Shown: in pieces, positions 11,588 to 37,824 of the stretch
Numbering within the stretch: position 1 is the stretch's first letter
Layout of the letters: every line of letters begins with the position of its first letter
Virus record (IMG/VR): IMGVR_UViG_3300033407_000006
Location: 1 to 64,000 of that record
DNA from: a virus
Lineage: Duplodnaviria; Caudoviricetes
Strand: one strand, 5' to 3'
Length of the DNA stretch: 64,000 nucleotides
Position numbers and translations under genes: made by a program
The notes under the pieces: model-generated
Database searches by the model: none
Seen by the model: only the letters and a program-made list of their open reading frames with translations
Told to the model about the DNA's origin: nothing

Positions 11588-11593
11588 TTCACC

Positions 11594-21559: not shown

Positions 21560-21595
21560 CGGAAACCTCTTTTTTGCGGGTTAAAAAGCCGTGTT

Positions 21596-21617
21596 GGCGG
21601 GCTAAACTATGTTATAA
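21596..21617 (+). other. attI-like half site at head of cassette array A
   Basis: GGCGGGCTAAACTAT-GTTATAA; 20 bp identical to 36881-36900; no R''/L'' half. Confidence 0.6.
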
Positions 21618-21818
21618 GTCGCTCGTCAATTTGAAGTTGAACGGCCTCTCCGGGGTGTAGTGCTCGCGGATTGAGCGGTCACGCTCTCGCAGTTGCTCAA
21701 CGATCCAGGCCTCTGCGAACTTTTCCAGCGTCGGGTAAAAGGTTCGCGTTTTCGTGCTGTCGTTGCCGGTCACGATATAGCCGTTATCAATGCGCTCTAT
21801 CTGTACGTCAATTTCCAT
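21612..21818 (-). CDS. Cassette A1 hypothetical protein
   Basis: 68 aa; TAA stop formed by the GTTA box. Confidence 0.75.
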   Translation of the reverse strand: MEIDVQIERIDNGYIVTGNDSTKTRTFYPTLEKFAEAWIVEQLRERDRSIREHYTPERPFNFKLTSDL

Positions 21819-21839
21819 CAGTACCTCCGTTTAGGCGAC

Positions 21840-21942
21840 TCATAACCCGTCGCTGAAGACGACGCGCAATAGCTGTCGGGTTCGCGTTCGATTCAGTGGT
21901 GCGCCGTCGTCGGCGCGGCGCGTCTTACCTTTGTCGTTATGC
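21840..21942 (+). repeat. attC site A1 (103 bp)
   Basis: TCATAAC-5-GCT(G)AAGAC...GTCTTACC-6-GTTATGC. Confidence 0.8.
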
Positions 21943-22155
21943 GCCAGCATCACCATCCATCAGTCCACAACCAATGGCGCAATCTTCACAGTGAGGGTTT
22001 CCATCACCATCCACAATAGAGTCCTCTTCGCAGTGGCCTGTCGGCTCCTCACATTTGCTGCAAAGCTGCAAAGTTCCAGGGTAGTTATCTGCGTTCCAAT
22101 GGGCGTGCTCCTCTTGCGTCATTGCATGTCTGCGTCCGCCTGGCCATGTGTTCAT
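21937..22155 (-). CDS. Cassette A2 Cys-rich small protein
   Basis: 72 aa, CSKC/CEDC; stop in the R' box. Confidence 0.7.
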   Translation of the reverse strand: MNTWPGGRRHAMTQEEHAHWNADNYPGTLQLCSKCEEPTGHCEEDSIVDGDGNPHCEDCAIGCGLMDGDAGA

Positions 22156-22178
22156 GGTGTTTCTCCTGTCCGCAAGAT

Positions 22179-22197
22179 GTTTAGCTAATTGTTATGC
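22179..22197 (+). other. Degenerate attC / simple recombination site A2
   Basis: GTTTAGC-TAATT-GTTATGC; no matching TAAC or hairpin upstream. Confidence 0.45.
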
Positions 22198-22509
22198 GTA
22201 CAAACATTCACGCCCAGCCATCTCTGCGGAAATCCAGTCTCCATCCATCGCATTTCCATTGATGGCCTTCTCCAGTTGCCGCAGCGTGTCCCGCAAGGAT
22301 TTCTCTAAATCGTTTATCCGGTCTTGCTTTATGCTCACAGTACCCTTCAGCTTCACGTTCTCGTCCCGCAGGTCTTTCAGTTCTGCGGCTATCGTGTCCA
22401 AAAAACCAACTGGATCTGCACTTGCCAACAGATTACCGCCGCTTATCATGTCGGCGAGTCTTCCAAAAGCCGCGTCAATTCTCGCCAGTTTCCCTTTCAT
22501 GCTTCCCAT
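22192..22509 (-). CDS. Cassette A3 coiled-coil hypothetical protein
   Basis: RBS GGAGG before the ATG at 22509; stop in the R' box. Confidence 0.7.
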   Translation of the reverse strand: MGSMKGKLARIDAAFGRLADMISGGNLLASADPVGFLDTIAAELKDLRDENVKLKGTVSIKQDRINDLEKSLRDTLRQLEKAINGNAMDGDWISAEMAGRECLYA

Positions 22510-22526
22510 AGTTTCCTCCAAAATTC

Positions 22527-22592
22527 GCATAACCAGCGGGTCAACTCGGATTGCGCAAACTGCCGCGCAACCGGTTACCCTTGTCGTTATAA
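22527..22592 (+). repeat. attC site A3 (66 bp)
   Basis: GCATAAC-5-GGT(C)AAC...TTGCGC/GCGCAA...GTTACC-6-GTTATAA. Confidence 0.9.
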
Positions 22593-22778
22593 ATCTTTGT
22601 GCGAAAGAGTGGCGGCACGTACGTACTCGCTTGGAGTAATTCCTGCCACCACAGCTTTGCGCTCTACCTCATCCCACTCTTCAGCCGTCCAGCGGGTTTG
22701 CTTAACAACGTCCCGCACAGGTTTGCGGCTGGTCGATCCTTGCGGCCTGCCCCCGCCTCGCCATCCTCCTTTAGGCAT
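22587..22778 (-). CDS. Cassette A4 ribbon-helix-helix DNA-binding protein
   Basis: 'GGGRPQG...TRWTAEEWDEVERKA..AGITPSEYVR'. Confidence 0.7.
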   Translation of the reverse strand: MPKGGWRGGGRPQGSTSRKPVRDVVKQTRWTAEEWDEVERKAVVAGITPSEYVRAATLSHKDL

Positions 22779-23004
22779 GGTCGCCCTCCACAAATGAGCA
22801 TGGTGCATAATCAAGAGGATCTCCACCGAGCATCCCCGGCTTTATGTTCCATCCACAGCGCCAGGGGTCAATCATACTTGCCAGCTCCGAGCGCAGTGCG
22901 TTCTTTTGCAGGACAAAGCCGGTGAATCGCTGCCGGTATCTGCACCCCGCCGCACATTCGGGCGGGGTGCCGGTATTCGTTGGGTCTGCCGGTAGTGGCC
23001 TCAT
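22771..23004 (-). CDS. Cassette A4 small Cys-containing protein
   Basis: ATG overlaps upstream stop (ATGA); coupled to RHH gene. Confidence 0.5.
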   Translation of the reverse strand: MRPLPADPTNTGTPPECAAGCRYRQRFTGFVLQKNALRSELASMIDPWRCGWNIKPGMLGGDPLDYAPCSFVEGDHA

Positions 23005-23189
23005 ACCCACCCCCCAGTTTCTGGGTCATATGCTTGGCGGCCACAAAAAACCGGATCAGGGCTGTGCGAAACGCGCACCAACGAAGCAGCACCAACAAGA
23101 CGGGCAGACTCGAAGCGCAGGTACGCGAGGCCAGCAAGCGGGGTGGAATCAGCGAGGGTGCCATTGATGTGAATTTCATAAGTTTCCAT
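23001..23189 (-). CDS. Cassette A4 small protein
   Basis: 62 aa, RBS AGGAG, behind a strong promoter. Confidence 0.65.
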   Translation of the reverse strand: METYEIHINGTLADSTPLAGLAYLRFESARLVGAASLVRVSHSPDPVFCGRQAYDPETGGWV

Positions 23190-23209
23190 GTTTGTTCTCC
23201 TATGTCGTT

Positions 23210-23249
23210 AAGTTGATTTAAATATATTTCAACTTTGTTTTCTTGTCAA
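23210..23249 (-). promoter_or_regulatory. Internal sigma70 promoter and operator of cassette A4
   Basis: TTGACA-17-TATATT; palindrome AAGTTGA-N12-TCAACTT (23210-23235). Confidence 0.75.
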
Positions 23250-23301
23250 TACAAAAAAACAACTAAACTATTAATTTGCCACGGAAGAGACGCCCAAAGA
23301 T

Positions 23302-23359
23302 TTATAACAAGTCAATCAACCGGATTCGCTACGCTCTCCGGTTATTTCAGTCGTTAGAT
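23302..23359 (+). repeat. attC site A4 (58 bp)
   Basis: TTATAAC-5-AAT(C)AACCGGA...TCCGGTTATT-6-GTTAGAT. Confidence 0.9.
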
Positions 23360-23376
23360 TCTAAATCTGCGCAAAA

Positions 23377-24171
23377 TCAGACAAAGCACATGCCGCTCGA
23401 ACAGTATCCGCCCGCATCGAATAGGGTCGGTTCTGCGGTAAAGTCCACCTGGTCCAGCGGTGTGCATGATCGGTGCAGCCAGGCGCACGGGTCGAACGCC
23501 TGCATTTCCCTCTCGAACGCCACCGCTTGAGCAAATTCGTCCGGTGCGTTCTCCTTCAGGTCTTTCCATTCGTCGTCGGCTTGGTTCGGGCACATCCAGC
23601 AACGCGACCTGGGCGGCTTCGGCCACCCCATCTTCTCGACTTCGCGGATTCCGTGGTGCCTCTTCATCGGCACATCGTGAATCATCGGAAACCGGATAAG
23701 CCCTTTTTCCCATTCCGGCCCCGCCATCATTCGCAAAGCCCGGCGCGTTTCGTCCATGCTGAATCCGATCCACATTTTCACCTTTGAGCGGGTCAAACCG
23801 AATGTCTTGCTCAAAAAACTCTGAATGACTCGGTTTTTCCATTTGCTTGAACAAAACCCCGGCATCTTGCCGACGTTCCCGGTCTCGTCTGTCCATGTTG
23901 GCAAAATCATGGTCTTCCCGCTCGGGTCAAGCCAGTTCGGATCTTTTGCATAATGACCGCCCCACTCATCGCAGCACACACGATGAATTTCTACCCCTAC
24001 CCCTGCCAGTGCAGGCAACGTAACGGCGTTAAGGTATTGCCACGTTGTCCCGCATTCCCGACCAGTGTCGGCAATCACCGCAAGATCCGGCTTCGGCAGC
24101 TTTCCTTGAATTATCAGCGAAGCGATACAGTTGCTTTGCGTCCCGCCTCCGCTGCTAAAAACCTCAACCAT
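23377..24171 (-). CDS. Cassette A5 PAPS-reductase-like (adenine nucleotide alpha hydrolase) protein
   Basis: 'FSSGGGTQS...ADTGRE...PRSRCWMCPNQ'. Confidence 0.8.
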   Translation of the reverse strand: MVEVFSSGGGTQSNCIASLIIQGKLPKPDLAVIADTGRECGTTWQYLNAVTLPALAGVGVEIHRVCCDEWGGHYAKDPNWLDPSGKTMILPTWTDETGNVGKMPGFCSSKWKNRVIQSFLSKTFGLTRSKVKMWIGFSMDETRRALRMMAGPEWEKGLIRFPMIHDVPMKRHHGIREVEKMGWPKPPRSRCWMCPNQADDEWKDLKENAPDEFAQAVAFEREMQAFDPCAWLHRSCTPLDQVDFTAEPTLFDAGGYCSSGMCFV

Positions 24172-24210
24172 TTAACCCCCTATCGGGCTGCGCCCGAGCG
24201 CAGATTTAGA

Positions 24211-24268
24211 ACCTAACCCAGCGGTGAAGCGGATTCGCTCCGCTCTCCGCTTACCTCAATCGTTACCT
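24211..24268 (+). repeat. attC site A5 (58 bp, last of array A)
   Basis: ACCTAAC-5-GGT(G)AAGCGGA...TCCGCTTACC-6-GTTACCT. Confidence 0.9.
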
Positions 24269-24287
24269 TGCAAGTTCTACATTTCAT
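24213..24287 (-). CDS. 24-aa mini-ORF reading through attC A5
   Basis: GGAGG-5-ATG; MKCRTCKVTIEVSGERSESASPLG*. Confidence 0.35.
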   Translation of the reverse strand: MKCRTCKVTIEVSGERSESASPLG

Positions 24288-24433
24288 AGTTGCCTCCAAC
24301 GCCTCAGACCCCGGCGCACAGGGCTGCCGCCAGGGTCGCCGCTGTCCACCTCAATGGCGATCTGGTCGTAGCTGGGCCGTATCCCCGCCGCCGCCTCGCC
24401 TGGGCTGTCAATTTCAAAGATGATTTTCTTCAT
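24284..24433 (-). CDS. Short hypothetical protein, possibly truncated
   Basis: 49 aa; RBS present; stop overlaps mini-ORF ATG. Confidence 0.4.
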   Translation of the reverse strand: MKKIIFEIDSPGEAAAGIRPSYDQIAIEVDSGDPGGSPVRRGLRRWRQL

Positions 24434-24743
24434 AGACCTCTCCCTCGTTCAGCTCTTTTGCCATGCCGAGCGGCCACCAGCGGGATATACAGCCGGGGCT
24501 CCGCATTGAAATGACCATCTCGGACGCTTCGAGCTTATTTAGAAGCCTGCGCGTGTTCTCAATGCTTTTCCCGGCAACTTCGGCGATGCTGACGGTCAAC
24601 GGCCCAATATCAACGGCCACGGCGTCGCCTTTTGAAACGTAGTAGTTCATGCAAAAACTGCTTTTAGCCACATGAGTCCGGCAGCAGGCTTTGAGCGCTT
24701 CGAGAACTTTTTCTGCTTCGGCGGAAATGACTCTGTTTTTCAT
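24414..24743 (-). CDS. Winged-helix-like hypothetical protein
   Basis: 'SIAEVAGKSIENTRRLLNKLEASEMV'. Confidence 0.6.
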   Translation of the reverse strand: MKNRVISAEAEKVLEALKACCRTHVAKSSFCMNYYVSKGDAVAVDIGPLTVSIAEVAGKSIENTRRLLNKLEASEMVISMRSPGCISRWWPLGMAKELNEGEVYEENHL

Positions 24744-24766
24744 GGCTCCCTCCCTTCTATGCCTTC

Positions 24767-24801
24767 AGTATCGCAAAAGGAATTTATCAACCCATTCACT
24801 A
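24767..24801 (-). promoter_or_regulatory. Conserved phage promoter motif, copy 2 (upstream of array A)
   Basis: TAGTGAATGGGTTGATAAATTC-N4-TG-C-GATACT. Confidence 0.65.
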
Positions 24802-24802
24802 T

Positions 24803-27283
24803 TCAATCGTTCCCTGCCAAAATCTTTTTGGCCCGCTCCAGCGCCTCGTTTCTCTCCCGGTCGCTGGCCTCTTCAACCGGCGTGTAATCGACCAAGTAGA
24901 AGAAGCAAACGGTATCGAAAAGGTCCGGGGATTTGATGCCCTGCGAGGCCATTTGATCCTTGGGAAGGATGGAGTAGCGGCCCTTTTCGTCCATCTTGTA
25001 AGGGATTTTGCTGCCCTGCTCCACGATCTTCTTGTTGCGGGGGATATGAATGCGCTGCTGCCTTAAGGCCTCCCTGGCCTGATACGAGGCGTAGGCCCGC
25101 AGGTTCTTGTATCGGCGCTTGTCGGTCTCCGAAAACGGCGGAAGGCCCCAATGGATTGTTTCGCACGGAACGCCCAGCTCTTCGAGCGTCAGGATGACGG
25201 TGCGACCCGGCCCGTCGCCGTCGATTGCAACGGTGATGTTGGGGAAGTCTTGAACCCGCTGATAGATCTCTCGGGCAAAGGCCAATTCGTCCTTGTCCAG
25301 GTATTCGACCGTCTCCACGATATCGACCTTGCGATCCGGGCCGTAGCCGCTCACTTTGGCGATGGACCAAACGGACGAATCCCGGAACTTCCCTTCAGCA
25401 ACGTCTGCGGTCAGAATCCAGCCCCAGGCCTCTTTGTGCTCAATCTGATTGGTCTGCGCATCCTCAAGCCATGATTTCGGAATGAGAAAGCCGCTCATGT
25501 TGTCGGGTAGCCGCCCCAGAACCTTGATCTGGTACTCAGGGCTGTGGTGCCCGCCGTACTCAATCAGCTTCATTTCGATGAATTCGCGGGTGACAAGCGG
25601 ACTTTCTTCGGAGTTGAGATTCAACGTCTTGTAAAGACTGGAGTTTTGCCCCCACGCGTCGGCAAAGTGACCGTTTGCCCGCGTCGGCTGCGAGACCATG
25701 ATATATCGGTTTCCGGCTTGGGTCAGGGCGCCGCGCAAAACGCCGTGAATGACATCATCCACGCCCGAGGCCTCATCCACCACGCACAGGTAATTTTCGT
25801 TGTGCTGGCCCGCCAGTGATTCCGGCTTGGACTTCGAGGCGGTACGGGGGATGACGTACCACGAATCTTTCCAGTGCTTGTTGAAGTACCGCTTTGTTTC
25901 CTTGACGAAGTGGCCCCGCTGGTAAGGGTTGATAGCCTCCACGTCGGCGATGACCTCATCCATGTACTTCCATACGCCCGTGCGGCACTGGTCGATGCTG
26001 TTTGCGGTCAATAGGGCGTTGCTCAAGGGGTAAACGCGAAGATGCCAATCGAAGAGCCAAGCGAGCAGAAAGGTCTTGCCGGTATTATGAAGAACGGTGA
26101 AGTCTCCACCAAGAAATTTGCTGTTTCCGTCGAGGATGAAGCCGTAATAGTCACCTTCGCCTAGTGGAGCGCAGCTTCTTATCCCGAAATTAAGGTTGGG
26201 CCGGTTCTTGTTTCTATCTATCGGTTTCCTTCTTTCTACTCGGACAGGTATCTTGTCGATATTTCTGCCTATGTTGATCCGCCAATAATCTCCCACCGCT
26301 CCGGTGTTGCAGCATTTTTTTCGAGTCTTATTAACTGTAGCATGACAACCAATCGATTTAGCCAGCCACACAATATCTCTTGCGAATCTTTCGCTCTTTT
26401 GAACAACGTCGAATGCTGTGCCCGCGCTTGCTAAAAACCCATCAGTATCAATAATGCCAGCCAAAAGCTCTAGCCTGTCTTGGTATGGCGCAAGCAAGTA
26501 TTTTTTAGGTATGTGCAGTTCATCTGTTAAACCATGTGCTCGAAGAGTTTCGATGAATGGATTGGCCCTCCCTTTTCCTATCCCAATGTGCCACATCCTG
26601 GCTTTGCCGCTCGCCCCCCAATAGGTAAGCCTGTAGCCCTTAGAAACTGCATACCGGCCCCATGCCTCGCTTACTTCTCTATCTGGTGTCGTTATCGTTG
26701 GCGTGTGAATATGTCCATCTCCTAGCCAGAGTCCGAGTATATATGCCGGGATCGGTAGCTCTTCGGGCTCCCAGCCGAAATCATTTACACTCGCCCTGTA
26801 GACAGCATGGCAACGCTTTCTATCGGCTCCCCATTGCAGCCAATCCCTAACCGTCACCTCAGTTTTCTCTCCAGACTCTCTGCGGCCTTTTGAGTTTGTT
26901 GCGACAAGGCAAAGGATATGACTTTCGTTGAAGACGTGGCTAGACCCGTCGTTGTAGGTGAAGCGATACAGCGCCTCCCGGCCACGTTTTAGCGCCAAGA
27001 CGTTTCGCGGCGTACCGTCATCGCCCATAAGGATGTCGCCCACATTCACGCTCTCAACCGGCTTTATCTCGCCGCTATGCAGCATGATTTCGGTTCCAAG
27101 GCCGAAGCAGCCGTGCCCGGACGCTACCGCAACCTGGGCCCCGTGCTCCTGCGCCAAGCGAATGAAATCCTCCTGCTGCCAGGACATCCGCTGTCGACAA
27201 TGGTGATCGACGTAATCCATGAGGTTGTTACGGTAGCGGGCGCAGAAATCGATGTAATCGGGATTGGAAAAGAGGGTGCTCAT
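24803..27283 (-). CDS. pacB: Terminase large subunit with intein
   Basis: Split Walker A 'ASGHG/TGKT', Walker B 'VVDEASGV', RuvC-like 'TADVAEG'; 484 aa after splicing. Confidence 0.92.
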   Translation of the reverse strand: MSTLFSNPDYIDFCARYRNNLMDYVDHHCRQRMSWQQEDFIRLAQEHGAQVAVASGHGCFGLGTEIMLHSGEIKPVESVNVGDILMGDDGTPRNVLALKRGREALYRFTYNDGSSHVFNESHILCLVATNSKGRRESGEKTEVTVRDWLQWGADRKRCHAVYRASVNDFGWEPEELPIPAYILGLWLGDGHIHTPTITTPDREVSEAWGRYAVSKGYRLTYWGASGKARMWHIGIGKGRANPFIETLRAHGLTDELHIPKKYLLAPYQDRLELLAGIIDTDGFLASAGTAFDVVQKSERFARDIVWLAKSIGCHATVNKTRKKCCNTGAVGDYWRINIGRNIDKIPVRVERRKPIDRNKNRPNLNFGIRSCAPLGEGDYYGFILDGNSKFLGGDFTVLHNTGKTFLLAWLFDWHLRVYPLSNALLTANSIDQCRTGVWKYMDEVIADVEAINPYQRGHFVKETKRYFNKHWKDSWYVIPRTASKSKPESLAGQHNENYLCVVDEASGVDDVIHGVLRGALTQAGNRYIMVSQPTRANGHFADAWGQNSSLYKTLNLNSEESPLVTREFIEMKLIEYGGHHSPEYQIKVLGRLPDNMSGFLIPKSWLEDAQTNQIEHKEAWGWILTADVAEGKFRDSSVWSIAKVSGYGPDRKVDIVETVEYLDKDELAFAREIYQRVQDFPNITVAIDGDGPGRTVILTLEELGVPCETIHWGLPPFSETDKRRYKNLRAYASYQAREALRQQRIHIPRNKKIVEQGSKIPYKMDEKGRYSILPKDQMASQGIKSPDLFDTVCFFYLVDYTPVEEASDRERNEALERAKKILAGND
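26084..27109 (-). mobile_element. Intein (342 aa) with LAGLIDADG homing endonuclease
   Basis: Starts CFGLGTEIML, ends VLHN before Thr; 'LGLWLGDG' and 'LAGIIDTDG'; lower GC. Confidence 0.93.
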
Positions 27284-27567
27284 AGATGCAGCCAAGGCTT
27301 TGCGGCGATATCGGGGATCAACTCCAGAAGCTCCCCTTCGGTTGCGATTGAAGCCTCGAACGATTCTCTTCCGGCATGGACGGCAACGCCCCGGCCCCCT
27401 TGCCGGTGATGTGCCGGGCAAAGGGGGATTCTCGGGGCGTTGCCGCGCTTTGAGCCACCGCGCCGGATATGGTGAATTTCAGCCGGTGACGTGCCGTAGC
27501 CGAGGCGGTGACAGGCCATGCAGCCGAACGAGGCGAGTTGCGAATCGGTGAAGTCTGTGTCGGTCAT
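27280..27567 (-). CDS. ref: Ref-like RecA-dependent HNH nuclease
   Basis: 'GCMAC...EIHH...IPLCPAHHR...VH'. Confidence 0.7.
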   Translation of the reverse strand: MTDTDFTDSQLASFGCMACHRLGYGTSPAEIHHIRRGGSKRGNAPRIPLCPAHHRQGGRGVAVHAGRESFEASIATEGELLELIPDIAAKPWLHL

Positions 27568-28196
27568 GTCGCGGCGGGAATATCTGCCAGGGCGAAGACG
27601 ATCCCCCGGCAGAATTGTTCATCCTCTTCCACGATGATAAAAGTTTTGTGAGGGATATCGGTCTCGAATTCCCAAAAGGGATCACCCAGGTCGTTCCAGA
27701 TAGCCTTGATCTTGGCCGCTTCTTCTTTCTGGCGGGAATACTGGCGGCACTCAGGGTTATGGCACTCGTTTCTGAGCAAGCCCTTGTCGGTCACAAAGAT
27801 TTCGGTGCCGTTGTAGGCGTCAACTTCGTCATCGATTGCTCCAAGGAGCCGGACAAGATCGTCGCTGTCGCCATGGACGATGACGATCCCGGCCTGCTTG
27901 GCCGCATCGATAATGAATTGCGGAACCATGTCGCGCCCGTATTCTGCGCCATAAAGATATCCTGCGATTTCCGTTGTGGTCATTGAATCCCCCCCCGCCC
28001 CGTAAGGCGCTCCGAGTTTGGAAGCAGCGGCATCCATCCTGCGCAGGTGCGTTTGCTGTTTTTTTTGCAGTTGGTTTATCACGCCAGAAGTGCCCTTGAC
28101 CCGCTCAAGCAATTCTATGGCGGCATGGGTCAATTCGAAATCTGTGTGTGCGCGTTGGAATTCAATGAGATGCTTTCTTCGCGTCTTAGCGTCCAT
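27564..28196 (-). CDS. Hypothetical protein, probable fusion of two small genes
   Basis: Internal Met after a G8 run; C-terminal 'VHGDSDDL..GAIDDE' phage family motif. Confidence 0.6.
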   Translation of the reverse strand: MDAKTRRKHLIEFQRAHTDFELTHAAIELLERVKGTSGVINQLQKKQQTHLRRMDAAASKLGAPYGAGGDSMTTTEIAGYLYGAEYGRDMVPQFIIDAAKQAGIVIVHGDSDDLVRLLGAIDDEVDAYNGTEIFVTDKGLLRNECHNPECRQYSRQKEEAAKIKAIWNDLGDPFWEFETDIPHKTFIIVEEDEQFCRGIVFALADIPAAT

Positions 28197-28205
28197 CGTC
28201 TCCTC

Positions 28206-28586
28206 CTAGATTTTCCGTTTCAACTCAATATCGAGAAGCCCCTTTTGATAGGCCTCCCGGATCTGTGCCGTCACCTCCTCGCGGCCCATTTCGACCGCAG
28301 AGACCCATGACGGTGTTGTTCCCATAGCCTTTGCCAGCTCCCGGACGGTCACATCCTCGGCTTCCCGCAACTTCGCCAGGACTTTGCCGTCGCTGTAATG
28401 CGGGCCGCGAGATATGGGCAGTTGCCCATACTTTTGCTCATATTGCTCATGGGTGAGGAATTCGTGCTTTCCGTCTTTGTTGACGTGGGTCATGACCTCA
28501 CCTCCATCAGCTTGCCGCAGCACTTCGGCGCTGTGCTGTCCTGAAAATACGGTATCCACGCCTTGCGAGTGCCGCACTTGGGACAT
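28206..28586 (-). CDS. XRE-family HTH protein (start uncertain)
   Basis: 'LREAEDVTVRELAKAMGTTPSWVSAVEMG'. Confidence 0.7.
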   Translation of the reverse strand: MSQVRHSQGVDTVFSGQHSAEVLRQADGGEVMTHVNKDGKHEFLTHEQYEQKYGQLPISRGPHYSDGKVLAKLREAEDVTVRELAKAMGTTPSWVSAVEMGREEVTAQIREAYQKGLLDIELKRKI

Positions 28587-28622
28587 TCGTACTCCTTGGG
28601 GCCGGTCAGGATTCCCACTTTC

Positions 28623-28898
28623 CTACTCATGGCTGGCCTGCGGCTGGTCCGTGCCGCCCTCTTCATGGCGCAAGACCTCTTCGGCCCGCGCCATGAAGTC
28701 GGCCATCATCTCCATGGTTTGCCGTGCCAGCCTGGGGTCTACGGGCAGTTGCACCCGGATCACCTTCTCACTCGCAAGGTTGTGGATAAGCGCCTGCCGT
28801 CTCATTCCTGCGGCAACGCCGACGTTGTAGGCCGTCACCACAAGGCCGATCAGGGCCACTACTGGAACTACCCAAGGTAAACAATTCATGGTCTTCAT
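28623..28898 (-). CDS. Membrane-anchored hypothetical protein
   Basis: N-terminal TM segment. Confidence 0.5.
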   Translation of the reverse strand: MKTMNCLPWVVPVVALIGLVVTAYNVGVAAGMRRQALIHNLASEKVIRVQLPVDPRLARQTMEMMADFMARAEEVLRHEEGGTDQPQASHE

Positions 28899-28941
28899 CA
28901 CTTCCCCTTGTCTGAATGCGTCTCGAACCGTGCCGGAATAC

Positions 28942-29172
28942 TCACAAGCTATCAGAACCTTTGCCACTTTCTTCCCCTCCCAATACGTCGAAAATGCTCA
29001 ACTGATTCAGGCCGTCGTTTATGCCGCCGCCGATCTTGGCCCTGCCGACACTCCCGCGCCGCCTCTTGGCGAACTCTCCGTGGGCCTTGAGCCAGCAGGT
29101 GCGGCCATAGCCCCGCTTGATGCTCTCGGCGTCCTTCAGCTCCCGGTGACAGAGATGACAACGCGGCTTCAT
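28942..29172 (-). CDS. DUF6011-like Zn-binding phage protein
   Basis: 'CHLCHRELKDAESIKRGYGRTC'. Confidence 0.6.
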   Translation of the reverse strand: MKPRCHLCHRELKDAESIKRGYGRTCWLKAHGEFAKRRRGSVGRAKIGGGINDGLNQLSIFDVLGGEESGKGSDSL

Positions 29173-29453
29173 CCCGGATACCTCCGGAGTTGCCCGTCGT
29201 CCGCTTCAGCTTTGGCGATCCGGCGGCTCAGGTAGGCATCTAAAGGAAGAGTCAAAGGAAGCAAGAGCAGATACAGCAACCAGAGAGCCGCCCGAGTAAA
29301 GCCGAGCCCGGCGCAGGACAGGCCGGCGACGACATCGCCCGCGCCCGCCAGCGCATCCTTGCCGCCGCTGAAGAACCAGATCCGCAGGCATTTACGGGCA
29401 TGCCACCGCAGGGGCTTGGCCGCGAGTTGTTTTGTGGTGAGATACTGCGCCAT
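29169..29453 (-). CDS. Small membrane protein
   Basis: Hydrophobic segments. Confidence 0.5.
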   Translation of the reverse strand: MAQYLTTKQLAAKPLRWHARKCLRIWFFSGGKDALAGAGDVVAGLSCAGLGFTRAALWLLYLLLLPLTLPLDAYLSRRIAKAEADDGQLRRYPG

Positions 29454-29462
29454 GGCTCCCTC

Positions 29463-30149
29463 TCAGTGGAAAAGTTGACCCTGTTTCAATTCGTCTTCGA
29501 TCCGCTTGCATGCCAAATCGAACGCCACCCGCCGGATCTCGCAGCCGATGAACTTTCGCCCGTTGGTCACGGCGGCAACGCCTGTTGTCGCCCGGCCCAT
29601 GCAGGGGTCAAAAATGGTTTCCCCCACGTCGGTGAAGTCGTGAACGAAGTGGCTCAGGAGAGACAGCGGTTTCTCTGTCGGGTAGAGCGCTCCCCTGGCG
29701 ACGGGTACGCTCCAGGTTCCCGCCTTGCCGCCACCGTTCCACCGCTTGCGGCCTTCCCGATGCAGGATTGCCACGGCCTCGAAACCTTGGCCCGGCCTGT
29801 CGCCGGAAATTTGCGGCGTCGGATTCGGCTTGACCCAGATCCCGTGCCGGACAAACTCGGGCCAATCGTACAGCAGCGGGATATGTTGGAAGTCGCAGGT
29901 GGAAACCACCCACCGCAGAGACACCCGCAGGAACTCCGCAAAGAACGTGGCGAATTCTTCGCCGCTGATGGAGCTAAAATCGATGAATTCCTCGGCCCCG
30001 GCCTTATTGGTCTTGGCGTTACTGTGCGTCCTGTTGTGGTACGGCACGTCGGTGATGATGTGATCAACGCTACCCTCTTCCCATGACGCCATCAGCTCCC
30101 GCGAGTCTCCCAGGTACAGCGTTGCGTCTCCGATAATTTCCTTTTCCAT
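29463..30149 (-). CDS. N6/N4 DNA methyltransferase (beta class), variant motifs
   Basis: 'LYLGD', 'ITDVPY', 'YPTEKP', 'FDPCMGRATTGVAA...RKFIGCE'. Confidence 0.8.
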   Translation of the reverse strand: MEKEIIGDATLYLGDSRELMASWEEGSVDHIITDVPYHNRTHSNAKTNKAGAEEFIDFSSISGEEFATFFAEFLRVSLRWVVSTCDFQHIPLLYDWPEFVRHGIWVKPNPTPQISGDRPGQGFEAVAILHREGRKRWNGGGKAGTWSVPVARGALYPTEKPLSLLSHFVHDFTDVGETIFDPCMGRATTGVAAVTNGRKFIGCEIRRVAFDLACKRIEDELKQGQLFH

Positions 30150-30171
30150 GTTCCCTCCTGTCGGTCCAAAC

Positions 30172-30206
30172 ACCTTAACATTGTGAATTTATCAACCCAC
30201 TCACTA
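30172..30206 (-). promoter_or_regulatory. Conserved phage promoter motif, copy 3
   Basis: TAGTGAGTGGGTTGATAAATTC-N4-TG-T-TAAGGT. Confidence 0.65.
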
Positions 30207-30237
30207 AACGATGTCAGGAGAGAAAAAACAAAAAAAA

Positions 30238-30603
30238 TCAGGCCCGATACCATTTGCCATCCCGCCAATGAAAAGGGGCCGGGGCCGTGCCGCCGCGCTT
30301 GGCCTTGTCCACCCAGCGGCGATGCACGGCGCTACAGGTTTTGCACATGCGATATCTGGAGTTCCCGTCGAAGAAATCCCCGTCGCAGCCGACAACGGTG
30401 CAGGGCGTCATCTGCATGCGGCTGATGGAGCCGAAAGTGACTTCCCGCGTCATCTTGCTGGAGACCTCCTGCTCCACGCGCCAGCTACAGAGGCGGCAGC
30501 GCACGACTCGCACCAGAATCATCGCTTCGGTCAGGTAATCGTCTTCCACCACAAGGTTTGACCCTGGGGCCCGGCATTTACCGCAAGCGCAATCACCGGC
30601 CAT
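30238..30603 (-). CDS. Cys-rich Zn-binding hypothetical protein
   Basis: CGKC, CRLC, CTVVGC, CKTC. Confidence 0.55.
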   Translation of the reverse strand: MAGDCACGKCRAPGSNLVVEDDYLTEAMILVRVVRCRLCSWRVEQEVSSKMTREVTFGSISRMQMTPCTVVGCDGDFFDGNSRYRMCKTCSAVHRRWVDKAKRGGTAPAPFHWRDGKWYRA

Positions 30604-31513
30604 CGCCTTCCTCCCATTGCTCAGAGTCTTTGAGGCGGGCCTTGCTCTCTTCGATTTCGGCCCGGCGCTGGGGTACAAACTGCTCCCGCTGCTCTTCGCG
30701 GGCCTTTCGCATCTCGGCAGCCCGGCGCTCCAGCTCTTCCGTTGAAGGCGGCTTGGCGAACCTGTCTTCGAGGCCTTCTTCCTTCATGATCGCCAGTTCC
30801 AGCACCTTGGGCAGGGGCAGCCCCAGGCAAGCGAACTCGAAGCCGCCTTCCTTGGCCGTGATCTCCCCGCTCTGAACCCGTCGCAGGATCTTGGCCTGGG
30901 CATCGGTGACGCGCTGGTGCGCCTCGCTGAAGAGCTTCTGATACCGACCCATCATCTCGCGGGCCTTCTGAACGTCGTGGGCCTTCACCTTGACTTTGCG
31001 GACCCGGCCCAGGACGGGATTGCCTTCGGCGTCGGTGTCGATTTCCTCCAACACCTCTTCCACGTCGATTTCCCGGATCTGGGCAAGCTGGTCCGGGGTC
31101 GCCTTCTTCAGGTTGAGGATCGGCATGCCGCGCTCGTCCACGTCGAAGAAATCGAACATGCTGGCCCGCGCCGTATTGGAAATCAGGCGCAAATTCTCAT
31201 CAATGGTAAGAATCGCCTCTTTTTCCCGCCCGGCTATCAGTTCTTTCATGAGTTCTGCAACTTGAACCTTTTTAAACAAGGCGCTGGCCTTGGTCCCGGC
31301 AGAGCTTTTGGAGTAGTTGGTGTAGATTTTCAGATAAGCGTTGGTCATGGAAAGCGTCGGATCTTTGACGCGCTCCATGACGACAAGCCAATCCTTATGG
31401 GTAAGGCCGTAGCTGTTGCGTTTTACTGTAGGCTCTCGTTTTTTCTGGGTTTTTTTCTTCGCGGCAGGTTTTTTAGGCGCTGGTTTCGTGGCCCGTGCTT
31501 TCTTTTCAGTCAC
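30593..31513 (-). CDS. pacA: Terminase small subunit
   Basis: Terminase_2-like N-terminus ('ASMFDFF...AHDVQKAREMMGRYQKLF'); PacA-like C-terminus. Confidence 0.7.
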   Translation of the reverse strand: MTEKKARATKPAPKKPAAKKKTQKKREPTVKRNSYGLTHKDWLVVMERVKDPTLSMTNAYLKIYTNYSKSSAGTKASALFKKVQVAELMKELIAGREKEAILTIDENLRLISNTARASMFDFFDVDERGMPILNLKKATPDQLAQIREIDVEEVLEEIDTDAEGNPVLGRVRKVKVKAHDVQKAREMMGRYQKLFSEAHQRVTDAQAKILRRVQSGEITAKEGGFEFACLGLPLPKVLELAIMKEEGLEDRFAKPPSTEELERRAAEMRKAREEQREQFVPQRRAEIEESKARLKDSEQWEEGDGR

Positions 31514-31706
31514 GGGCCCCTCCATCCACAAAGTCGAACCAGTTTTCTTTCCAGCGGTCCAGGTCCGTGACGCGCCCGCACCAGTGCCCTCCGATTTTGA
31601 CGATGGGGATGTCGAGCCGCGCCTTCCACTTCTTGACCCAAGTGGGGGATCTGCCGATATGGTCGGCGATTGCCACCATTCCCCAGATTTTGCCGTCGCG
31701 TGTCAT
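31506..31706 (-). CDS. Excisionase/AlpA-like HTH protein
   Basis: 'IADHIGRSPTWVKKW...IPIVKIGGHW'. Confidence 0.65.
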   Translation of the reverse strand: MTRDGKIWGMVAIADHIGRSPTWVKKWKARLDIPIVKIGGHWCGRVTDLDRWKENWFDFVDGGARD

Positions 31707-31926
31707 GCCTTCCTCCTTTTAAAGCCTTATTGCTGAATAACAATGAAAAATCAAGCACTTTTCCAGATTGAAATAACGCGGCGGTGCGCCAGCTTCCGTG
31801 TTGCTTTGCGGTATCCAATGCGGCGGATGATGCCCATGTGAGAGGCGGCAATGAACAGGCCGCCCCATGCGTTCGGGTGCGGCGGGTCGCCAACATTTCC
31901 TGCAATTTGCCATGAGCTACCCCCCT

Positions 31927-32991
31927 TTAGTCCGCGTTTTCGTACCACACTATGACGGGCAGCATCGGACTCGGTGCCGTGGTTCTGTATTCCAGAAACC
32001 TCTTGAACTTCTCGCGGAAGAGGTTGAGGCCGGTCTCGATAAGCGCCAGCTTCTCGGTGCAGACCGCCAGCCGCTCAAGCTCTTCGTCGTCAGCGGCCTT
32101 GTCGAGCACGACAGAAGGGGTCTTCATGCTCTTGATGTCGAAAGTTTCTGCGTCCAGGTTGAAGGACCAGACATCTTCCCCTTTTTCCATGACGATGTGC
32201 GCTTCGACAATCGACTTGCCCGCCAGGAGGGCAGACTTTATTTCGGTGAAGCTGAACTCGGGTCCACTCACGGCGACCTTGCCGCCGTCGTCTTTGAGGA
32301 CCACCTTTTCGCAGATGTACGCAGAGCCGTCGTTGTCGGTGTCCGTCTTCCATGCCAGCCACTTCAGGAACTCTGCTCCGAGGTTCGAGTTTTGAGAGAC
32401 GCGCAGCAGGTAATCATCGTCCTTGCTCCCCTCGTCCAGCCCGGCGGCTTTCTCGCCGAGCAGCTCGTAGGCGATATCAATCGGCGCGATGGGAACGAAT
32501 CTCAGGCCGGGCGCGGTCAATCGAAAGAGATCCGTCACCGTGTCGCACTCCCTGGCGGACGAGGTGAAAATCATGGCTGAAGTGCTGGAGATACAGAACT
32601 GCGTGACCTTCGCAATGGGGTAGGTTTTCGGCAGCAGTTCGGCGATCACCGCTTCGAGCATCGCCTCCTTCTTCCCCTTGGGAACACGCTTGAGGCCGGG
32701 GTGTTCTGCCAGGAAGGCCGCGCTTGCAGCCGCAAGGTGCCGCTTGACGACCGACGGGGGGATTTTCCGCCGGTCCTGGCGCATGGCGAACAGCCTGTTG
32801 TCTTCGTGGGTCAACCTGCTGAGTTCCGTGAAGCGCTCAGGGTCGAGCGGATCGACGAACCCGACGGATTCGGCTCTTGCCACCTCATCGATGGGCTGGA
32901 ATGCCAGTTGGGTGATGTTCTTGCCCTCCTGGGCATCTTCGGCGACGACGCGGTATTGCTTGATTGCAGTTTTGCTTTTGAACAGGCTCAT
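31927..32991 (-). CDS. rdgC: RdgC-like recombination-associated protein (P1 HrdC-like)
   Basis: 'ESVGFVDPL...MRQDRRKIP...WSFNLDAETF'. Confidence 0.75.
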   Translation of the reverse strand: MSLFKSKTAIKQYRVVAEDAQEGKNITQLAFQPIDEVARAESVGFVDPLDPERFTELSRLTHEDNRLFAMRQDRRKIPPSVVKRHLAAASAAFLAEHPGLKRVPKGKKEAMLEAVIAELLPKTYPIAKVTQFCISSTSAMIFTSSARECDTVTDLFRLTAPGLRFVPIAPIDIAYELLGEKAAGLDEGSKDDDYLLRVSQNSNLGAEFLKWLAWKTDTDNDGSAYICEKVVLKDDGGKVAVSGPEFSFTEIKSALLAGKSIVEAHIVMEKGEDVWSFNLDAETFDIKSMKTPSVVLDKAADDEELERLAVCTEKLALIETGLNLFREKFKRFLEYRTTAPSPMLPVIVWYENAD

Positions 32992-33003
32992 TTCTTCCCT
33001 CCG

Positions 33004-33339
33004 CTACACGGTTTTGATGATGACAGGGTACAGGTCTTCTACCTGGGCCCGCTTGAGTTTGAAGGTTTCGGTCTCAAATCCCTTGGTATCCACGAAATGA
33101 ACGGTGCCATCCGCGTGAAACTCTTGGAAATCGATGACGTACCGGATATTCCCCGGTAGATGAAAAGGCACTTGCCGCAGGAAGAAAAGAACCTCCCCGG
33201 CCTTCTGTCTTAGCTTCAGCTCGCTGTAGTACCGCGCCTCTTTCTTGGAATCGAAGCGGATGCCGTCAACGACAACGGCCTGTGCGGCGTACTTGCTTTT
33301 CTTCTGGCCCGTGAATTTGTGCCGGACGATTCTGGTCAC
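33004..33339 (-). CDS. DUF1064-like PD-(D/E)XK nuclease
   Basis: 'DGIRFDSKKEARYY...YVIDF...VDTKG'. Confidence 0.8.
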   Translation of the reverse strand: MTRIVRHKFTGQKKSKYAAQAVVVDGIRFDSKKEARYYSELKLRQKAGEVLFFLRQVPFHLPGNIRYVIDFQEFHADGTVHFVDTKGFETETFKLKRAQVEDLYPVIIKTV

Positions 33340-33351
33340 TTGAGCTGCCTT

Positions 33352-33735
33352 TCAGTGGATTGTCTTCGATTGTGGCACATTGAATTTGTCATCCCATTCA
33401 CTAAAATCGTGGTCCCTCGACAAATCTGCGCCGCGATTGATGCCGAAGTGCTCCGACGAATGGTATTTGCCGCGCCCGAGGAAAAAGCCGTTGAGCCCCT
33501 GGGTCTGGAGCTTGCGGAAAAACGTGGGGTAGGGCACGTCCATCAACTCCGCAGCCTTGCGGCGGGAATAGCCCTGTTGGGCGAGTTCCTGAACGGCGTC
33601 TTTATCCAGCAGCCGGGAAGCCTCCAAGCACTCGCGGGAACAATAGCGCTGGTGCATCCGGCTTTCGGTGACGTGGAATTTCTGCCTGCATCGCTCGTTC
33701 TCGCACTCAACGGCGTACCTTGTGTGTCTACGCAT
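33352..33735 (-). CDS. Zn/HTH hypothetical protein
   Basis: 'YCSREC', 'GYSRRKAAELMDVPYPTF'. Confidence 0.6.
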   Translation of the reverse strand: MRRHTRYAVECENERCRQKFHVTESRMHQRYCSRECLEASRLLDKDAVQELAQQGYSRRKAAELMDVPYPTFFRKLQTQGLNGFFLGRGKYHSSEHFGINRGADLSRDHDFSEWDDKFNVPQSKTIH

Positions 33736-34012
33736 CTCCCTGCCCCCTTCTGGTTTTCATGGACGCTGCCGCGCCGCGCCGGGCGTAGGTTCTCAGGGAC
33801 GTTGCCCATTTGCGGCCCGCTGGCTTCGATGACTTCTTCGCCAGCTTGTCCATGCTCTGCGCCTGGGTGCATCCGGCGCACAGCTCTCCGTTGTCTCCGT
33901 TGCGGTACTGCTCGCAGGCGAAGGGGGCGATCCTGGCGTTGTGCAGATCGCACTTGACCGCGTTTTTCTCCAACCATTCCTCCTGGTGCGTCTTGTCCAT
34001 GGTTCCCTCCAT
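33728..34012 (-). CDS. Cys-rich hypothetical protein
   Basis: 94 aa. Confidence 0.55.
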   Translation of the reverse strand: MEGTMDKTHQEEWLEKNAVKCDLHNARIAPFACEQYRNGDNGELCAGCTQAQSMDKLAKKSSKPAGRKWATSLRTYARRGAAASMKTRRGQGDA

Positions 34013-34135
34013 GTCAAAGTTTTGAAATTTCAGTTTTAAGGCCGATATTTTTTTCGGGCCCTTGCCTTGGTATGTCTTCCTCGGCCTTTTGCGGCCCTAG
34101 GGGTCATTCTGTGCCGACTGCGTTGATTTACGGTC

Positions 34136-34939
34136 TTACTCTGTGAGGGCTGAAGATAATTTTTTTTGCAAATCGGACTTGAGCTTCTCTTTCCGGTCTC
34201 GGATTTGAGCTATTTCCTGCCTAAGCTCTTCGTCCTTCATCCGCCGCTGCTGTTCATCACGAATTCTGCCCTTCTCTTCCAGGTCTTCGCGCAGCTTGCG
34301 AAGTTTCGCCAGAAAGACCGGCTTCAGGTTTTCAGTGGGTTGTTCAGCCCCGGCCACCATGGAAATGAGAGCCCGGCCTTCCGCAGTCGTATCCTGTTGC
34401 AGCAGGTTGGAGACAGCGGCCCTGGGCAAAATCCCTTGTTCAACCGCCTCCCGCGCCACGGCTGCGCGGTGTTCCGGGTCAAAGCCTTCGGAGAGATACC
34501 AGCGAGCCAGCCCGCCTCGTTCTTTTGCGCGAGCAACCGCCCGGTCGTATGCGTCCCGAAAGCAAACCCTCGCCCCAACCTCATCCCCGCTCTGAAAAAT
34601 CGCCCGGCATGCGCTCCAGGCTTCCAAAATCTCCGGGCAGATGACGGCACTCTTGCTCTCGTCCGACAAGCCGAGCGCCTTTGCCCAGGCCTCGTTGCCG
34701 GACAAAAAGCCGTCAGGGTTTTCGGCTTCAATCGCTTCGATGAAATCGGCGGGGAGGGGGAAAGTCCGAAACTTGTGAGTTCGGCTCACCCTCTCTATCG
34801 CCCGAAAAACTTTGTCCTTGCCGTAGGGGGCCAGAATGTCCTCATAGGCCCGGATTTTGGTTGCAGAGACATCAACGCTGATTAACTCCGACAAGGCAAA
34901 GAGTCTGCACCCTATCGCCTTCCTGGTTTCCTCGTTCAT
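34136..34939 (-). CDS. Replication protein P-like (helicase loader-type)
   Basis: 'FPLPADF...EAW...GDEVGARVCFRDAY'; follows the initiator gene. Confidence 0.65.
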   Translation of the reverse strand: MNEETRKAIGCRLFALSELISVDVSATKIRAYEDILAPYGKDKVFRAIERVSRTHKFRTFPLPADFIEAIEAENPDGFLSGNEAWAKALGLSDESKSAVICPEILEAWSACRAIFQSGDEVGARVCFRDAYDRAVARAKERGGLARWYLSEGFDPEHRAAVAREAVEQGILPRAAVSNLLQQDTTAEGRALISMVAGAEQPTENLKPVFLAKLRKLREDLEEKGRIRDEQQRRMKDEELRQEIAQIRDRKEKLKSDLQKKLSSALTE

Positions 34940-35874
34940 CGGCCCTCCATGTATCGCCGGAACTCTTCCCGGTTCCGATCCGTCGTTGTGGCGGCGCGGC
35001 CTGCGTTGTTTTTAGCGCCACCACGGTCCTGCTCCCTTGAAAGCCAATTGACAAGGAACGCCTTGATCCCGCTTTTGGTTTTCCGACGCTTGGGGTTCGC
35101 GTCCGACCATGCCGCTGCCTTGCGAAGCTCCTGCAACACATCGACCGCCGGGAAAAGCTGCGTCCACTGGTCAATGTCCGACTGCGGGACGTGGTGCGCC
35201 TCGCCCCCTACCAGTGGGATCTGAATCACTGATCCGCCCTCGGGGGGCAAGACTTCGATGGTCGGCTCTGAGTTTTGCTCAGAGCAAGAATCTTCGTAAG
35301 AAGATTCCTCTCCTTTTGTTTTTAAAGGAGAAGGAGAAGGAGAAGGAGAAGGAGAAGGGGTTCGGTCGAACGTCCGAACGCTGCGTTCGGGGTTGTTCGA
35401 TTTTCGTTGCGTAACATCTTGATTTTTACGGCTTTCTGTTTTTGCTTCGTTCGGGCTGTTTTTGGTGGTCGTTCGGGAGCCGTTCGGGAGAGGTTGCGCG
35501 GTCCCTTTTTGTGCCTTTCGAGCCGCCGCACTTGCCTTCCCGGCCTTCCTTGCAGCCGCCTTTCTTTGCTCACCGTTTACCGCCCAAGGCTGGTGTTCTT
35601 CCCAATCTTTCGGGGCGTACCCGTTGGGTGTTTCGATCAGGAACTTTGCTTCGAGCATGCCCCTTACGAACACGCCGGGCTCCCCTTCCCAGCCAGCAAC
35701 GTCTTCAATGTCTTCGTTCGACCACCCGTTCAACACTCCGTTCGGGCGTTGTTCGGCAACTGTGGTCCAGAAGCAGATCAGGTTTTCCATGGCGGTGGGG
35801 CCCACCATGCGTCGCAATCGCTTGAATTTCCTATGTCTCGGCAATTTCACGTCTATGCGAATGTCAGTGTTCAT
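34936..35874 (-). CDS. Phage replication initiator (lambda O-like)
   Basis: N-terminal wHTH, SPSPSP linker, C-terminal 'KRRKT...FLVNWL'. Confidence 0.75.
   Translation of the reverse strand: MNTDIRIDVKLPRHRKFKRLRRMVGPTAMENLICFWTTVAEQRPNGVLNGWSNEDIEDVAGWEGEPGVFVRGMLEAKFLIETPNGYAPKDWEEHQPWAVNGEQRKAAARKAGKASAAARKAQKGTAQPLPNGSRTTTKNSPNEAKTESRKNQDVTQRKSNNPERSVRTFDRTPSPSPSPSPSPLKTKGEESSYEDSCSEQNSEPTIEVLPPEGGSVIQIPLVGGEAHHVPQSDIDQWTQLFPAVDVLQELRKAAAWSDANPKRRKTKSGIKAFLVNWLSREQDRGGAKNNAGRAATTTDRNREEFRRYMEGR
35361..35490. repeat. Iteron-like repeats, probable lytic origin
   Basis: CGTTCGG at 35384, 35448, 35470, 35481 (CGTTCGGGAG twice) plus an inverted copy at 35374, inside the initiator gene. Confidence 0.5.
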
Positions 35875-35896
35875 TGGCTCAACCTAGTGCCTGGAG

Positions 35897-36094
35897 TTAT
35901 TTCAAATCTGCATACCCTGGAACCTTCTTTGCTTCTTCTTCAAGTTGGCGGATTTTCTTGCGGTGCGCTGTTTGCGGCTCATGGTTTTCATTCTCCCATG
36001 TCCGCCAGGTGTTGCGGTGAACTTTAACCCTGGAAGCGGCTTGCTCCTGCGTCAATTCCAGCGCTTCCCGGATAAGCTCAAATCGGTTTTTCAT
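35897..36094 (-). CDS. XRE HTH protein
   Basis: 'LELTQEQAASRVKVHRNTWRTWE'; own TTGACG-18-TACAGT promoter. Confidence 0.75.
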   Translation of the reverse strand: MKNRFELIREALELTQEQAASRVKVHRNTWRTWENENHEPQTAHRKKIRQLEEEAKKVPGYADLK

Positions 36095-36190
36095 GGCTTG
36101 GCCTTTCTTTTATTGTTGTTCTTTTTCTTACACTGTAAGGCGCACGAATGCCAGCCGTCAATCCCTTTTTCGCAAAAACGCGAAAAGGTC

Positions 36191-36538
36191 TCAGCTCATG
36201 CCGTAGCCGCGCTGCTCAGAGCGCCTGCTTGCCTCTCTGGTGCGCAGCAACTCCGCTTCGAGGCTCACTCCCTCCATGCGGACGCGCAGCGACTCATAGG
36301 CGATTGTGGCCCGCTCCAAGTCGTCCAGATAGACCATGTACCCGTCACTGGCGTAGGCCTCCCGCTCCTGTGCCGCCGCTGTCTTGTGGCCCTCCTTCCC
36401 GGCTTGCACCATTTCGAGCGCAAGCCGGGTTTTTTTCATCTCTTCGAGCTTCTTCATGCGGGCTTTGGCAACGGGGATTTCGGCGGCGCAGCGGCGATAC
36501 TCCGACATCAGCCTTTCAATTTTTATGTCAAGATCCAT
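36191..36538 (-). CDS. Coiled-coil phage protein
   Basis: 'AAQEREAYAS..Y', common phage family. Confidence 0.65.
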   Translation of the reverse strand: MDLDIKIERLMSEYRRCAAEIPVAKARMKKLEEMKKTRLALEMVQAGKEGHKTAAAQEREAYASDGYMVYLDDLERATIAYESLRVRMEGVSLEAELLRTREASRRSEQRGYGMS

Positions 36539-36541
36539 GCG

Positions 36542-36637
36542 TTACCGGCACGGGCTGTAGCCGCAATGGGGGTAGATAGGGCACCCTCCTTGCGGGATCA
36601 TTTTGTTGCCGCAGTCGGGGCAGGTTGTAGCCTTCAT
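36542..36637 (-). CDS. Mini Zn-ribbon protein (31 aa)
   Basis: CPDCG...GGC...CGYSPC; overlapping start and stop. Confidence 0.45.
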   Translation of the reverse strand: MKATTCPDCGNKMIPQGGCPIYPHCGYSPCR

Positions 36638-36834
36638 TCGTCAACTTCCTCCTTCATAAATTCATGGTACGGGCTGCCATTGATGAGTCCGTGCATGGCG
36701 TCTTCCCTGGCACCTTCTGAGCGGTAGCGTCTGAAGACAATCCATTCGTCGCCGTAGAGGCGTTGCCCGTTTTTGTCCGGCTTGCTCCGGTACAGAATCG
36801 CATAGGGCTTTCGATGTTGAGGGCGGTAGGCCAT
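36634..36834 (-). CDS. Hypothetical protein
   Basis: 66 aa, RBS AAGGAG. Confidence 0.6.
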   Translation of the reverse strand: MAYRPQHRKPYAILYRSKPDKNGQRLYGDEWIVFRRYRSEGAREDAMHGLINGSPYHEFMKEEVDE

Positions 36835-36880
36835 AAGGCTCCTTCATTCTTGGTTTGGACCGGAATTAGACGGCCAGATC

Positions 36881-36902
36881 GGCGGGCTAAACTATGTTAT
36901 GC
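36881..36902 (+). other. attI-like half site at head of cassette array B
   Basis: GGCGGGCTAAACTAT-GTTATGC. Confidence 0.6.
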
Positions 36903-37133
36903 CTTAAAGCCGTACGATTTACGGCCCCTCCCAAAAGGTCCGGCATTTATCCTCTCCTCCCCTGCTCGCGCTGTCCACTTCGCCTTCCAAATTTTCTTCC
37001 CAGGCTCGGTATCTTGTGTTCCCTCAATGACATCCCCACCCCAAGCTTTTTCGATAGCCTCGGCTTCGGTGGCTGCCTCAACGCAACACATTGTTTGGGT
37101 GCTTTCGTAGCCTTCCACGTAAAAAATAGGCAT
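36897..37133 (-). CDS. Cassette B1 hypothetical protein
   Basis: ATG inside the R'' box, SD (AAGGA) inside attC B1, stop in the R' box. Confidence 0.7.
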   Translation of the reverse strand: MPIFYVEGYESTQTMCCVEAATEAEAIEKAWGGDVIEGTQDTEPGKKIWKAKWTARAGEERINAGPFGRGRKSYGFKA

Positions 37134-37510: not shown

Positions 37511-37521
37511 TCTCCGATCCC

Positions 37522-37811: not shown

Positions 37812-37824
37812 TTTTGACCTCCGC

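Follow-up and report, generated by a model that had tools for sequence, protein, structure and literature searches.

The phage genome studied here, called G000 (IMG/VR record IMGVR_UViG_3300033407_000006, 74,876 bp with direct terminal repeats, of which bases 1-64000 form the window that was analysed), carries two exact copies of a 20-nt sequence. Each of them is very probably the core of an orphan integron attI site that heads its own array of cassettes, with first-position insertion at its crossover and with any further capture dependent on an integron integrase (IntI) acting in trans. The two heads are orphan attI sites; in other words, they lead attI-headed clusters of attC sites lacking integrases (CALINs). 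Their homology to attI sites that adjoin intI genes, their position, their polarity, their crossover and the absence of intI are all observed directly.

The two copies of the 20-mer lie at 21596-21615 (head A) and 36881-36900 (head B), both on the + strand. No third copy with three or fewer mismatches was found in the window, and there are only these two in all 74,876 bp of the record; two matches never occurred together in 100 dinucleotide shuffles. The gene content flanking the two copies is unrelated; the flanking phage genes lie on the minus strand and include those for portal, tail fibre, SbcCD-like, primase-like and replication-initiator proteins. The non-cassette portion of the repeat is a 16-mer ending in the G at 21611 or 36896, the last four nucleotides (TTAT) being on the cassette side. 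When we compared the two heads over the full attI-like site, which is about 36-40 nt long, we found that the core is identical at 16/16 positions while the next 20 nt leftwards agree at only 9/20 (25/36 in total to about -36), and this identity outside the core is no better than that between different phages. Judged from sequence, such core-only identity would fit constraint by one integrase specificity, although it falls short of proof.

Our own scanners for attC sites proved too noisy or too strict and were replaced by a covariance model, R1. The sites of both arrays share the layout xxxTAAC, 5 nt, bulged L'', variable loop, L', 6 nt, GTTAxxx. As a reference for polarity we took the aadA1 attC of the class 1 integron in plasmid R100 (NC_002134), read in gene sense, which shows the same geometry (a bulged L'' and spacers of 5 and 6 nt) and whose columns align one for one with those of the ten phage sites. 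RNAalifold on the attC alignment returned a paired R, a spacer without pairing and an L helix with a bulge, along with compensatory changes, and R1, built from that alignment, found ten sites of 38-61 bits, all on the + strand, and nothing else in the window; on the remaining 11 kb of the record it found no attC. Since all ten sites are on the + strand with the aadA1 geometry, the + strand is the attC top strand. Each head leads an array of 5-6 cassettes (Table 1).

The crossover can be placed from the cassettes themselves. In array A, the bases that open the first cassette, just past the G at 21611, are complementary at 11/12 positions to the R'' region of the attC nearest downstream (21840); in array B the corresponding bases, past the G at 36896, are complementary at 8/8 to the R'' of its first attC (37130). 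Such complementarity is the signature of an R' half parted from its attC by recombination at G|TT, and because the cassette starts complement their own R'', the terminal TTAT of the 20-mer belongs to the cassettes. No R''/L'' hairpin partner was present in folds at either head, and R1 gave no match at either.

Homologous sites were reached through the 264-aa protein of cassette A5, which has a 61%-identical homologue in a viral contig of 56.9 kb, G002. R1 finds attC sites in this contig, all antisense to the genes and forming two arrays, both of which begin with one common head (13 identical nucleotides ending in G|TTAT, 15/17 overall); the first-cassette starts complement their own R'' at 10/10 positions at both heads. 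Fifty nucleotides from one of these heads, and reading away from it, starts a broken tyrosine-recombinase gene (L044:9537-9866, + strand) that keeps about 95 C-terminal residues and has an in-frame TGA. Its best NCBIfam match is the integron integrase, up to the profile end (7.4e-20), with XerC and XerD nearly as good. When we searched viral contigs with this remnant, we obtained four contigs with intact integrases of 325-327 aa (L050, L055, L056 and L058), which score 295-311 bits against TIGR02249, the curated cut-off being 265. A further integrase-like ORF (open reading frame) of 323 aa stands beside a homologous site in a contig of a Deltaproteobacteria metagenome-assembled genome (MAG), L071; its N terminus resembles the four scored IntI, and it is itself unscored. 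One of the loci, L050:7215-8198, belongs to a complete phage (G004; 45,165 bp, terminal repeats, rated 100% complete) with an intact integron integrase, a family attI and one model-detected attC.

In these six independent contigs (the four with scored intact integrases, L071 and the G002 remnant) the homologous site precedes the start of a tyrosine recombinase gene by 50-77 nt; it is always on the strand opposite to the integrase gene and is followed by attC of the same polarity, which is the canonical intI-attI-cassette layout. Anchored on the crossover, the relatives' sites match the G000 heads at 10-14/16 positions of the core and at 19-27/36 of the whole site, against an average of about 9.5/36 and a maximum of 16 for 62 other GTTA-anchored sites of G000. 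A strict family pattern retrieved from viral contigs only two already-known loci. A degenerate pattern for the whole site occurs in five places in 596 Gb of genomes, with only a few chance matches estimated; R1 matches attC at four of the five loci, and the fifth, L070, has none but equals L067 in its site and left flank. Both L067 and L070 are attI-headed arrays without adjacent intI, as in G000. They sit in archaeal MAG bins of one study, named Methanoperedens and Nitrosotalea, and are probably mis-binned contigs of phages or mobile elements.

Two contigs of one proteobacterial MAG, L068 and L069, have in common the site and about 90 nt of near-identical left flank, and from G|TTAGG onward they show 21% identity over 200 nt. 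Since they diverge exactly at G|TT, cassette content varies at the crossover; the pair looks like an assembly fork from cassette polymorphism at that point. No intI was seen within the sequence examined for either contig.

In the multiple alignment the order is TTA(G/A)AC..GCC (31 nt upstream from the G of the R box), then GCC(A)-N3-(T)GGC, the L box with ..CTAA.., a 5-nt spacer and G|TTA. From the L-like box to GTT there are 3 nt in the heads, versus 6 nt in the ten attC sites. The upstream TTA..GCC box keeps its register in all family members and aligns with the first direct repeat (DR1) of attI1, which makes it a candidate accessory integrase-binding site. When the heads are aligned with attI1 of R100/In2 (NC_002134), the GTTA of DR1 coincides with the upstream TTA box, the AA of the attI1 L box with its phage counterpart and the attI1 GTT with the R box; TTA (DR1), AA (L box) and GTT (R box) form invariant columns. 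Like the phage heads, attI1 is a duplex site at the array head with its crossover at G|TT, a ..CTAA.. L box a few nucleotides before the R box, no hairpin, and a GTTA-type DR1 about 32 nt upstream, all in register. The heads differ from it in a spacer 1 nt shorter, an ungapped core match of only 6/16, no evident equivalent of DR2, the additional GCC(A)-N3-(T)GGC element, the lack of an adjacent intI or Pc, and their presence in two copies in one replicon. The other attI of the family (L050/G004, L055, L056/G006, L058, L071, L067/L070 and L068/L069) agree with the heads in box order and in position before the first cassette; in L050, L055, L056, L058 and L071 a full-length integrase gene lies 50-77 nt away, where G000 has unrelated phage genes.

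The preliminary description of this DNA had claimed that an identical 20-bp sequence stands in two unrelated contexts, that it consists of an L-like box and a GTT box without a hairpin partner, that it occupies the left end of each array as attI would for plus-strand attC sites, and that it resembles attI1 but is 1 nt shorter. All of this holds: the heads are at the low-coordinate edge of four and six attC sites, and the likeness to attI1 persists in register against the real R100 sequence. The description of the repeat as an attI-like entry site is likewise upheld, as homologous sites adjoin the 5′ ends of full-length integrase genes and each heads an attC array.

An 8-mer, GGCCAGAT, occurs at 36868-36875, in the attI region left of head B, and again at 39129-39136, immediately past the crossover of the final attC in array B; TTAG precedes both. 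Recombination at the DR-like box may have left it, or it may be due to chance. Around array A there is nothing comparable to this recurrence, and a target-site duplication around the arrays was rejected for that reason, leaving the 8-mer unexplained.

An adjacent divergent intI is a hallmark of attI, and it is present at the homologous sites (four intact IntI and the G002 remnant) and absent at the G000 heads. With intI missing, G000 lacks the complete integron, that is, intI, attI and cassettes on one replicon; its clusters of four and six attC, with no integrase in the genome, correspond to the definition of CALINs (at least two attC, no intI nearby). Since G000 is without a tyrosine recombinase, recombination at its heads would need an integrase in trans.

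Searches for kin of G000 gave little. A megablast of 20 kb against the phage collection returned no close relative, nor did the 872-aa primase-like protein, and the portal protein led to one distant relative, G001, in which R1 finds no attC. The exact 18-mer of the site has no match in the viral or genome contig collections; four metagenome matches to it were rejected as chance, lying inside unrelated low-GC sequence. A portal search of the integron-bearing contigs gave no match; these phages are not close kin of G000, and the module therefore moves between phage lineages.

The credible ORFs of both arrays, which include NikA-like, phage ProQ_C-like, helix-turn-helix (HTH) and PAPS-reductase-like proteins, are all on the minus strand, and every cassette gene is therefore antisense to the attC polarity. 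The same holds at all phage-type loci (the G000 arrays, L050, L055, L056, L058, L071 and L044), where the cassette ORFs, together with any intI, all read in one direction and run antisense to the attC top strand; in the bacterial L068 array, which belongs to the same attI family, the ORFs are in the usual sense orientation. Two of the G000 cassettes have two genes and their own strong sigma-70-type promoters (23221-23249 and 38707-38734, both on the minus strand), one of them with an operator-like inverted repeat; with their small HTH- or NikA-like ORFs they look like toxin-antitoxin or regulator modules. In array A, a segment of about 250 bp, A2, with a 72-aa Cys-rich ORF, has the same GTTATGCG box at both edges (21936-21942 and 22191-22197) without the 5′ half of an attC, and is perhaps a cassette that has degenerated, perhaps an insertion of another type.

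Qi et al. 2023 (PMC9892861) described CALINs, and a few integrons, in phages, and found that IntI1 recombined the phage attC sites they tested. The CALINs in the passages we consulted are, like those of G000, attC clusters without an integron integrase in phage genomes; those passages mention no conserved attI at the array heads and give mostly the usual orientation, whereas G000 has two attI-headed arrays with all ORFs antisense. According to Bouvier 2005 and later work, as summarised in PMC9892861 and bioRxiv 10.1101/2022.09.11.507474, IntI binds duplex attI at the L, R and DR boxes, and attI is recombined with the folded bottom strand of attC at G|TT, which places the new cassette first.

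By the same route, an integron integrase would insert a folded attC cassette between the G and TT of the duplex docking site, and insertion at the head crossover would have built both G000 arrays, or at any rate placed their first cassette. An adjacent intI would have been lost from G000, or would never have been present there, and further capture, excision or reshuffling would call for a family IntI acting in trans, whether from the host or from another phage, co-infecting or resident. Transcription from phage promoters may run leftwards through the antisense-coded cassettes, across attI and into the next phage gene, which in the relatives is intI. Binding of an integrase to the G000 heads, their activity today and the origin of that integrase are matters of inference. 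The claim of two dedicated insertion sites, made in the preliminary description, is supported by attI homology, position and crossover, with the caveat that such sites would have to be served by an integrase from elsewhere, G000 itself encoding none.

Several observations weigh against orphan attI sites as the explanation of the heads. No tyrosine recombinase is found in the full 74.9-kb record with PF00589 (Phage_integrase) and TIGR02249 (integron integrase), even at E = 1, and the genes in the intI position of both heads are not integrase relics. The cassette ORFs are all antisense to the attC polarity, which is unusual for integrons. Within array A, a junction near 22176-22197 (about 22186) is without a hairpin or a full attC. 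Each G000 copy has one degenerate position in its GCC(A)-N3-(T)GGC element, and no relative with the exact 18-mer exists in the viral, genome and metagenome collections.

Beyond the identity of the sites, their present role can be read in more than one way. One reading, to which we give somewhat less than even chances, is that the orphan attI are live docking sites served in trans, so that G000 would be a client of phage-to-phage cassette exchange, its antisense cassettes would be expressed by phage read-through, and the 16-nt identity would be selected for one integrase specificity. The main alternative, possible but in our estimate unlikely, is that the heads are true attI homologues left as dead relics of decayed integrons, with frozen arrays, and that the 16-nt identity reflects recent common descent and not selection. 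The lack of intI in G000, the degenerate palindromic element in both copies and the absence of exact relatives in which turnover could show all suit such relics. Against them, the core is identical while the adjacent 20 nt differ as much as they do from phage to phage, a pattern in keeping with constraint on the core; moreover, neither copy has lost any of the family-conserved positions, all ten attC sites are well formed, and R'/R'' pairing is cognate at the first cassette of either array.

It is very improbable that the 16-mer is instead a phage sequence of other function (a promoter, a terminator or a module linker) that a host integrase happened to use as a secondary target of the attG type. 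In double-stranded DNA, according to Loot et al. (bioRxiv 10.1101/2022.09.11.507474), IntI can insert cassettes at GWT sites (attG) with hotspots of 9+9 nt, and the G000 heads resemble attG as double-stranded targets cut at G|WT outside a complete integron; both copies also lie 47-60 nt upstream of a minus-strand gene. Yet neither head drew a call for a sigma-70-type promoter or for a terminator, and attG sites, which have only GWT and weak flanking motifs in common and a structure unlike attI, lack a family-wide sequence, whereas the head site is a conserved attI-family sequence, found beside intI in unrelated phages and in a bacterial MAG. It is hardly credible that the 16-mer is the 3′ half (L', spacer and R') of an attC with its 5′ half deleted, the finding that the preliminary description had named as fatal to its proposal: it does run into GTTAT like attC R' boxes, and array A has one hairpin-less junction of such a kind, but the L-R distance is that of no attC in either array, there is no stem partner, the homologous sites of the relatives, likewise without a hairpin, abut intI and are not truncated attC, and the ten attC sites differ from one another, which makes 16/16 identity of two independent remnants unlikely.

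Detailed knowledge of attI sites is confined to a handful of integron classes, and phage CALINs have hitherto been treated as attC clusters of unclear origin. The sites described here define a conserved attI family common to several unrelated phages and environmental bacteria, of which G000 has two copies and no integrase. In a limited literature search we found no description of a conserved attI family at phage array heads, of two orphan attI in one phage, or of antisense cassettes co-directional with intI. Several questions become testable with this family: whether phages capture cassettes by means of an integrase they do not encode, how attI specificity is coded (DR1, the palindrome, the L and R boxes), and why phage-integron cassettes run antisense to attC polarity and in the direction of intI. 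The family also gives a simple sequence mark by which the heads of arrays can be recognised in viral metagenomes.

Table 1. Features of the two attI-headed arrays of G000 and of the genes beside them (positions in the window).
Feature	Position	Strand	Remarks
Head A, DR1-like box (TTA + GCC)	21581-21590	+	31 nt upstream of the R-box G; in register with head B, six relatives and attI1 DR1; TTA and GC are invariant columns
Head A, 16-nt core	21596-21611	+	Second half of GCC-N-GGC, L box ..CTAA.., short spacer, crossover G; exact repeat; 10-14/16 against intI-adjacent sites
Head A, R box G|TTATAA	21611-21617	+	Cassette A1 from 21612; TTA is the stop (TAA) of the minus-strand ORF 21612-21818
Array A	21612-24268	+	attC 21840-21942, 22527-22592, 23302-23359, 24211-24268 (R1 48-61 bits); all ORFs minus
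Phage gene phrog_1837, function unknown	20909-21559	-	Occupies the intI position of relatives; start about 60-75 nt from the crossover; no IntI similarity
Head B, DR1-like box TTAGAC.GCC	36866-36875	+	In register with head A and relatives; TTAGAC the same in L050 and L071
Head B, 16-nt core	36881-36896	+	Exact repeat; family alignment
Head B, R box G|TTATGC	36896-36902	+	Cassette B1 from 36897; TTA is the stop of ORF 36897-37139 (-)
Array B	36897-39136	+	attC 37130-37187, 37522-37613, 37825-37889, 38168-38235, 38782-38850, 39051-39136 (R1 38-60 bits); all ORFs minus
66-aa ORF beside head B	36634-36834	-	intI position; start 62 nt from the crossover; no IntI similarity; no family match

Two other repeats were seen in the window. 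A motif of 26-29 nt occurs in four copies (20383, 24773, 30178 and 33375), just upstream of minus-strand genes; it does not match sigma-70 spacing and may be a phage-specific promoter. A direct repeat of 58 nt, 86% identical between 11548-11605 and 56944-57001, contains a TTGACA-type promoter-like sequence.

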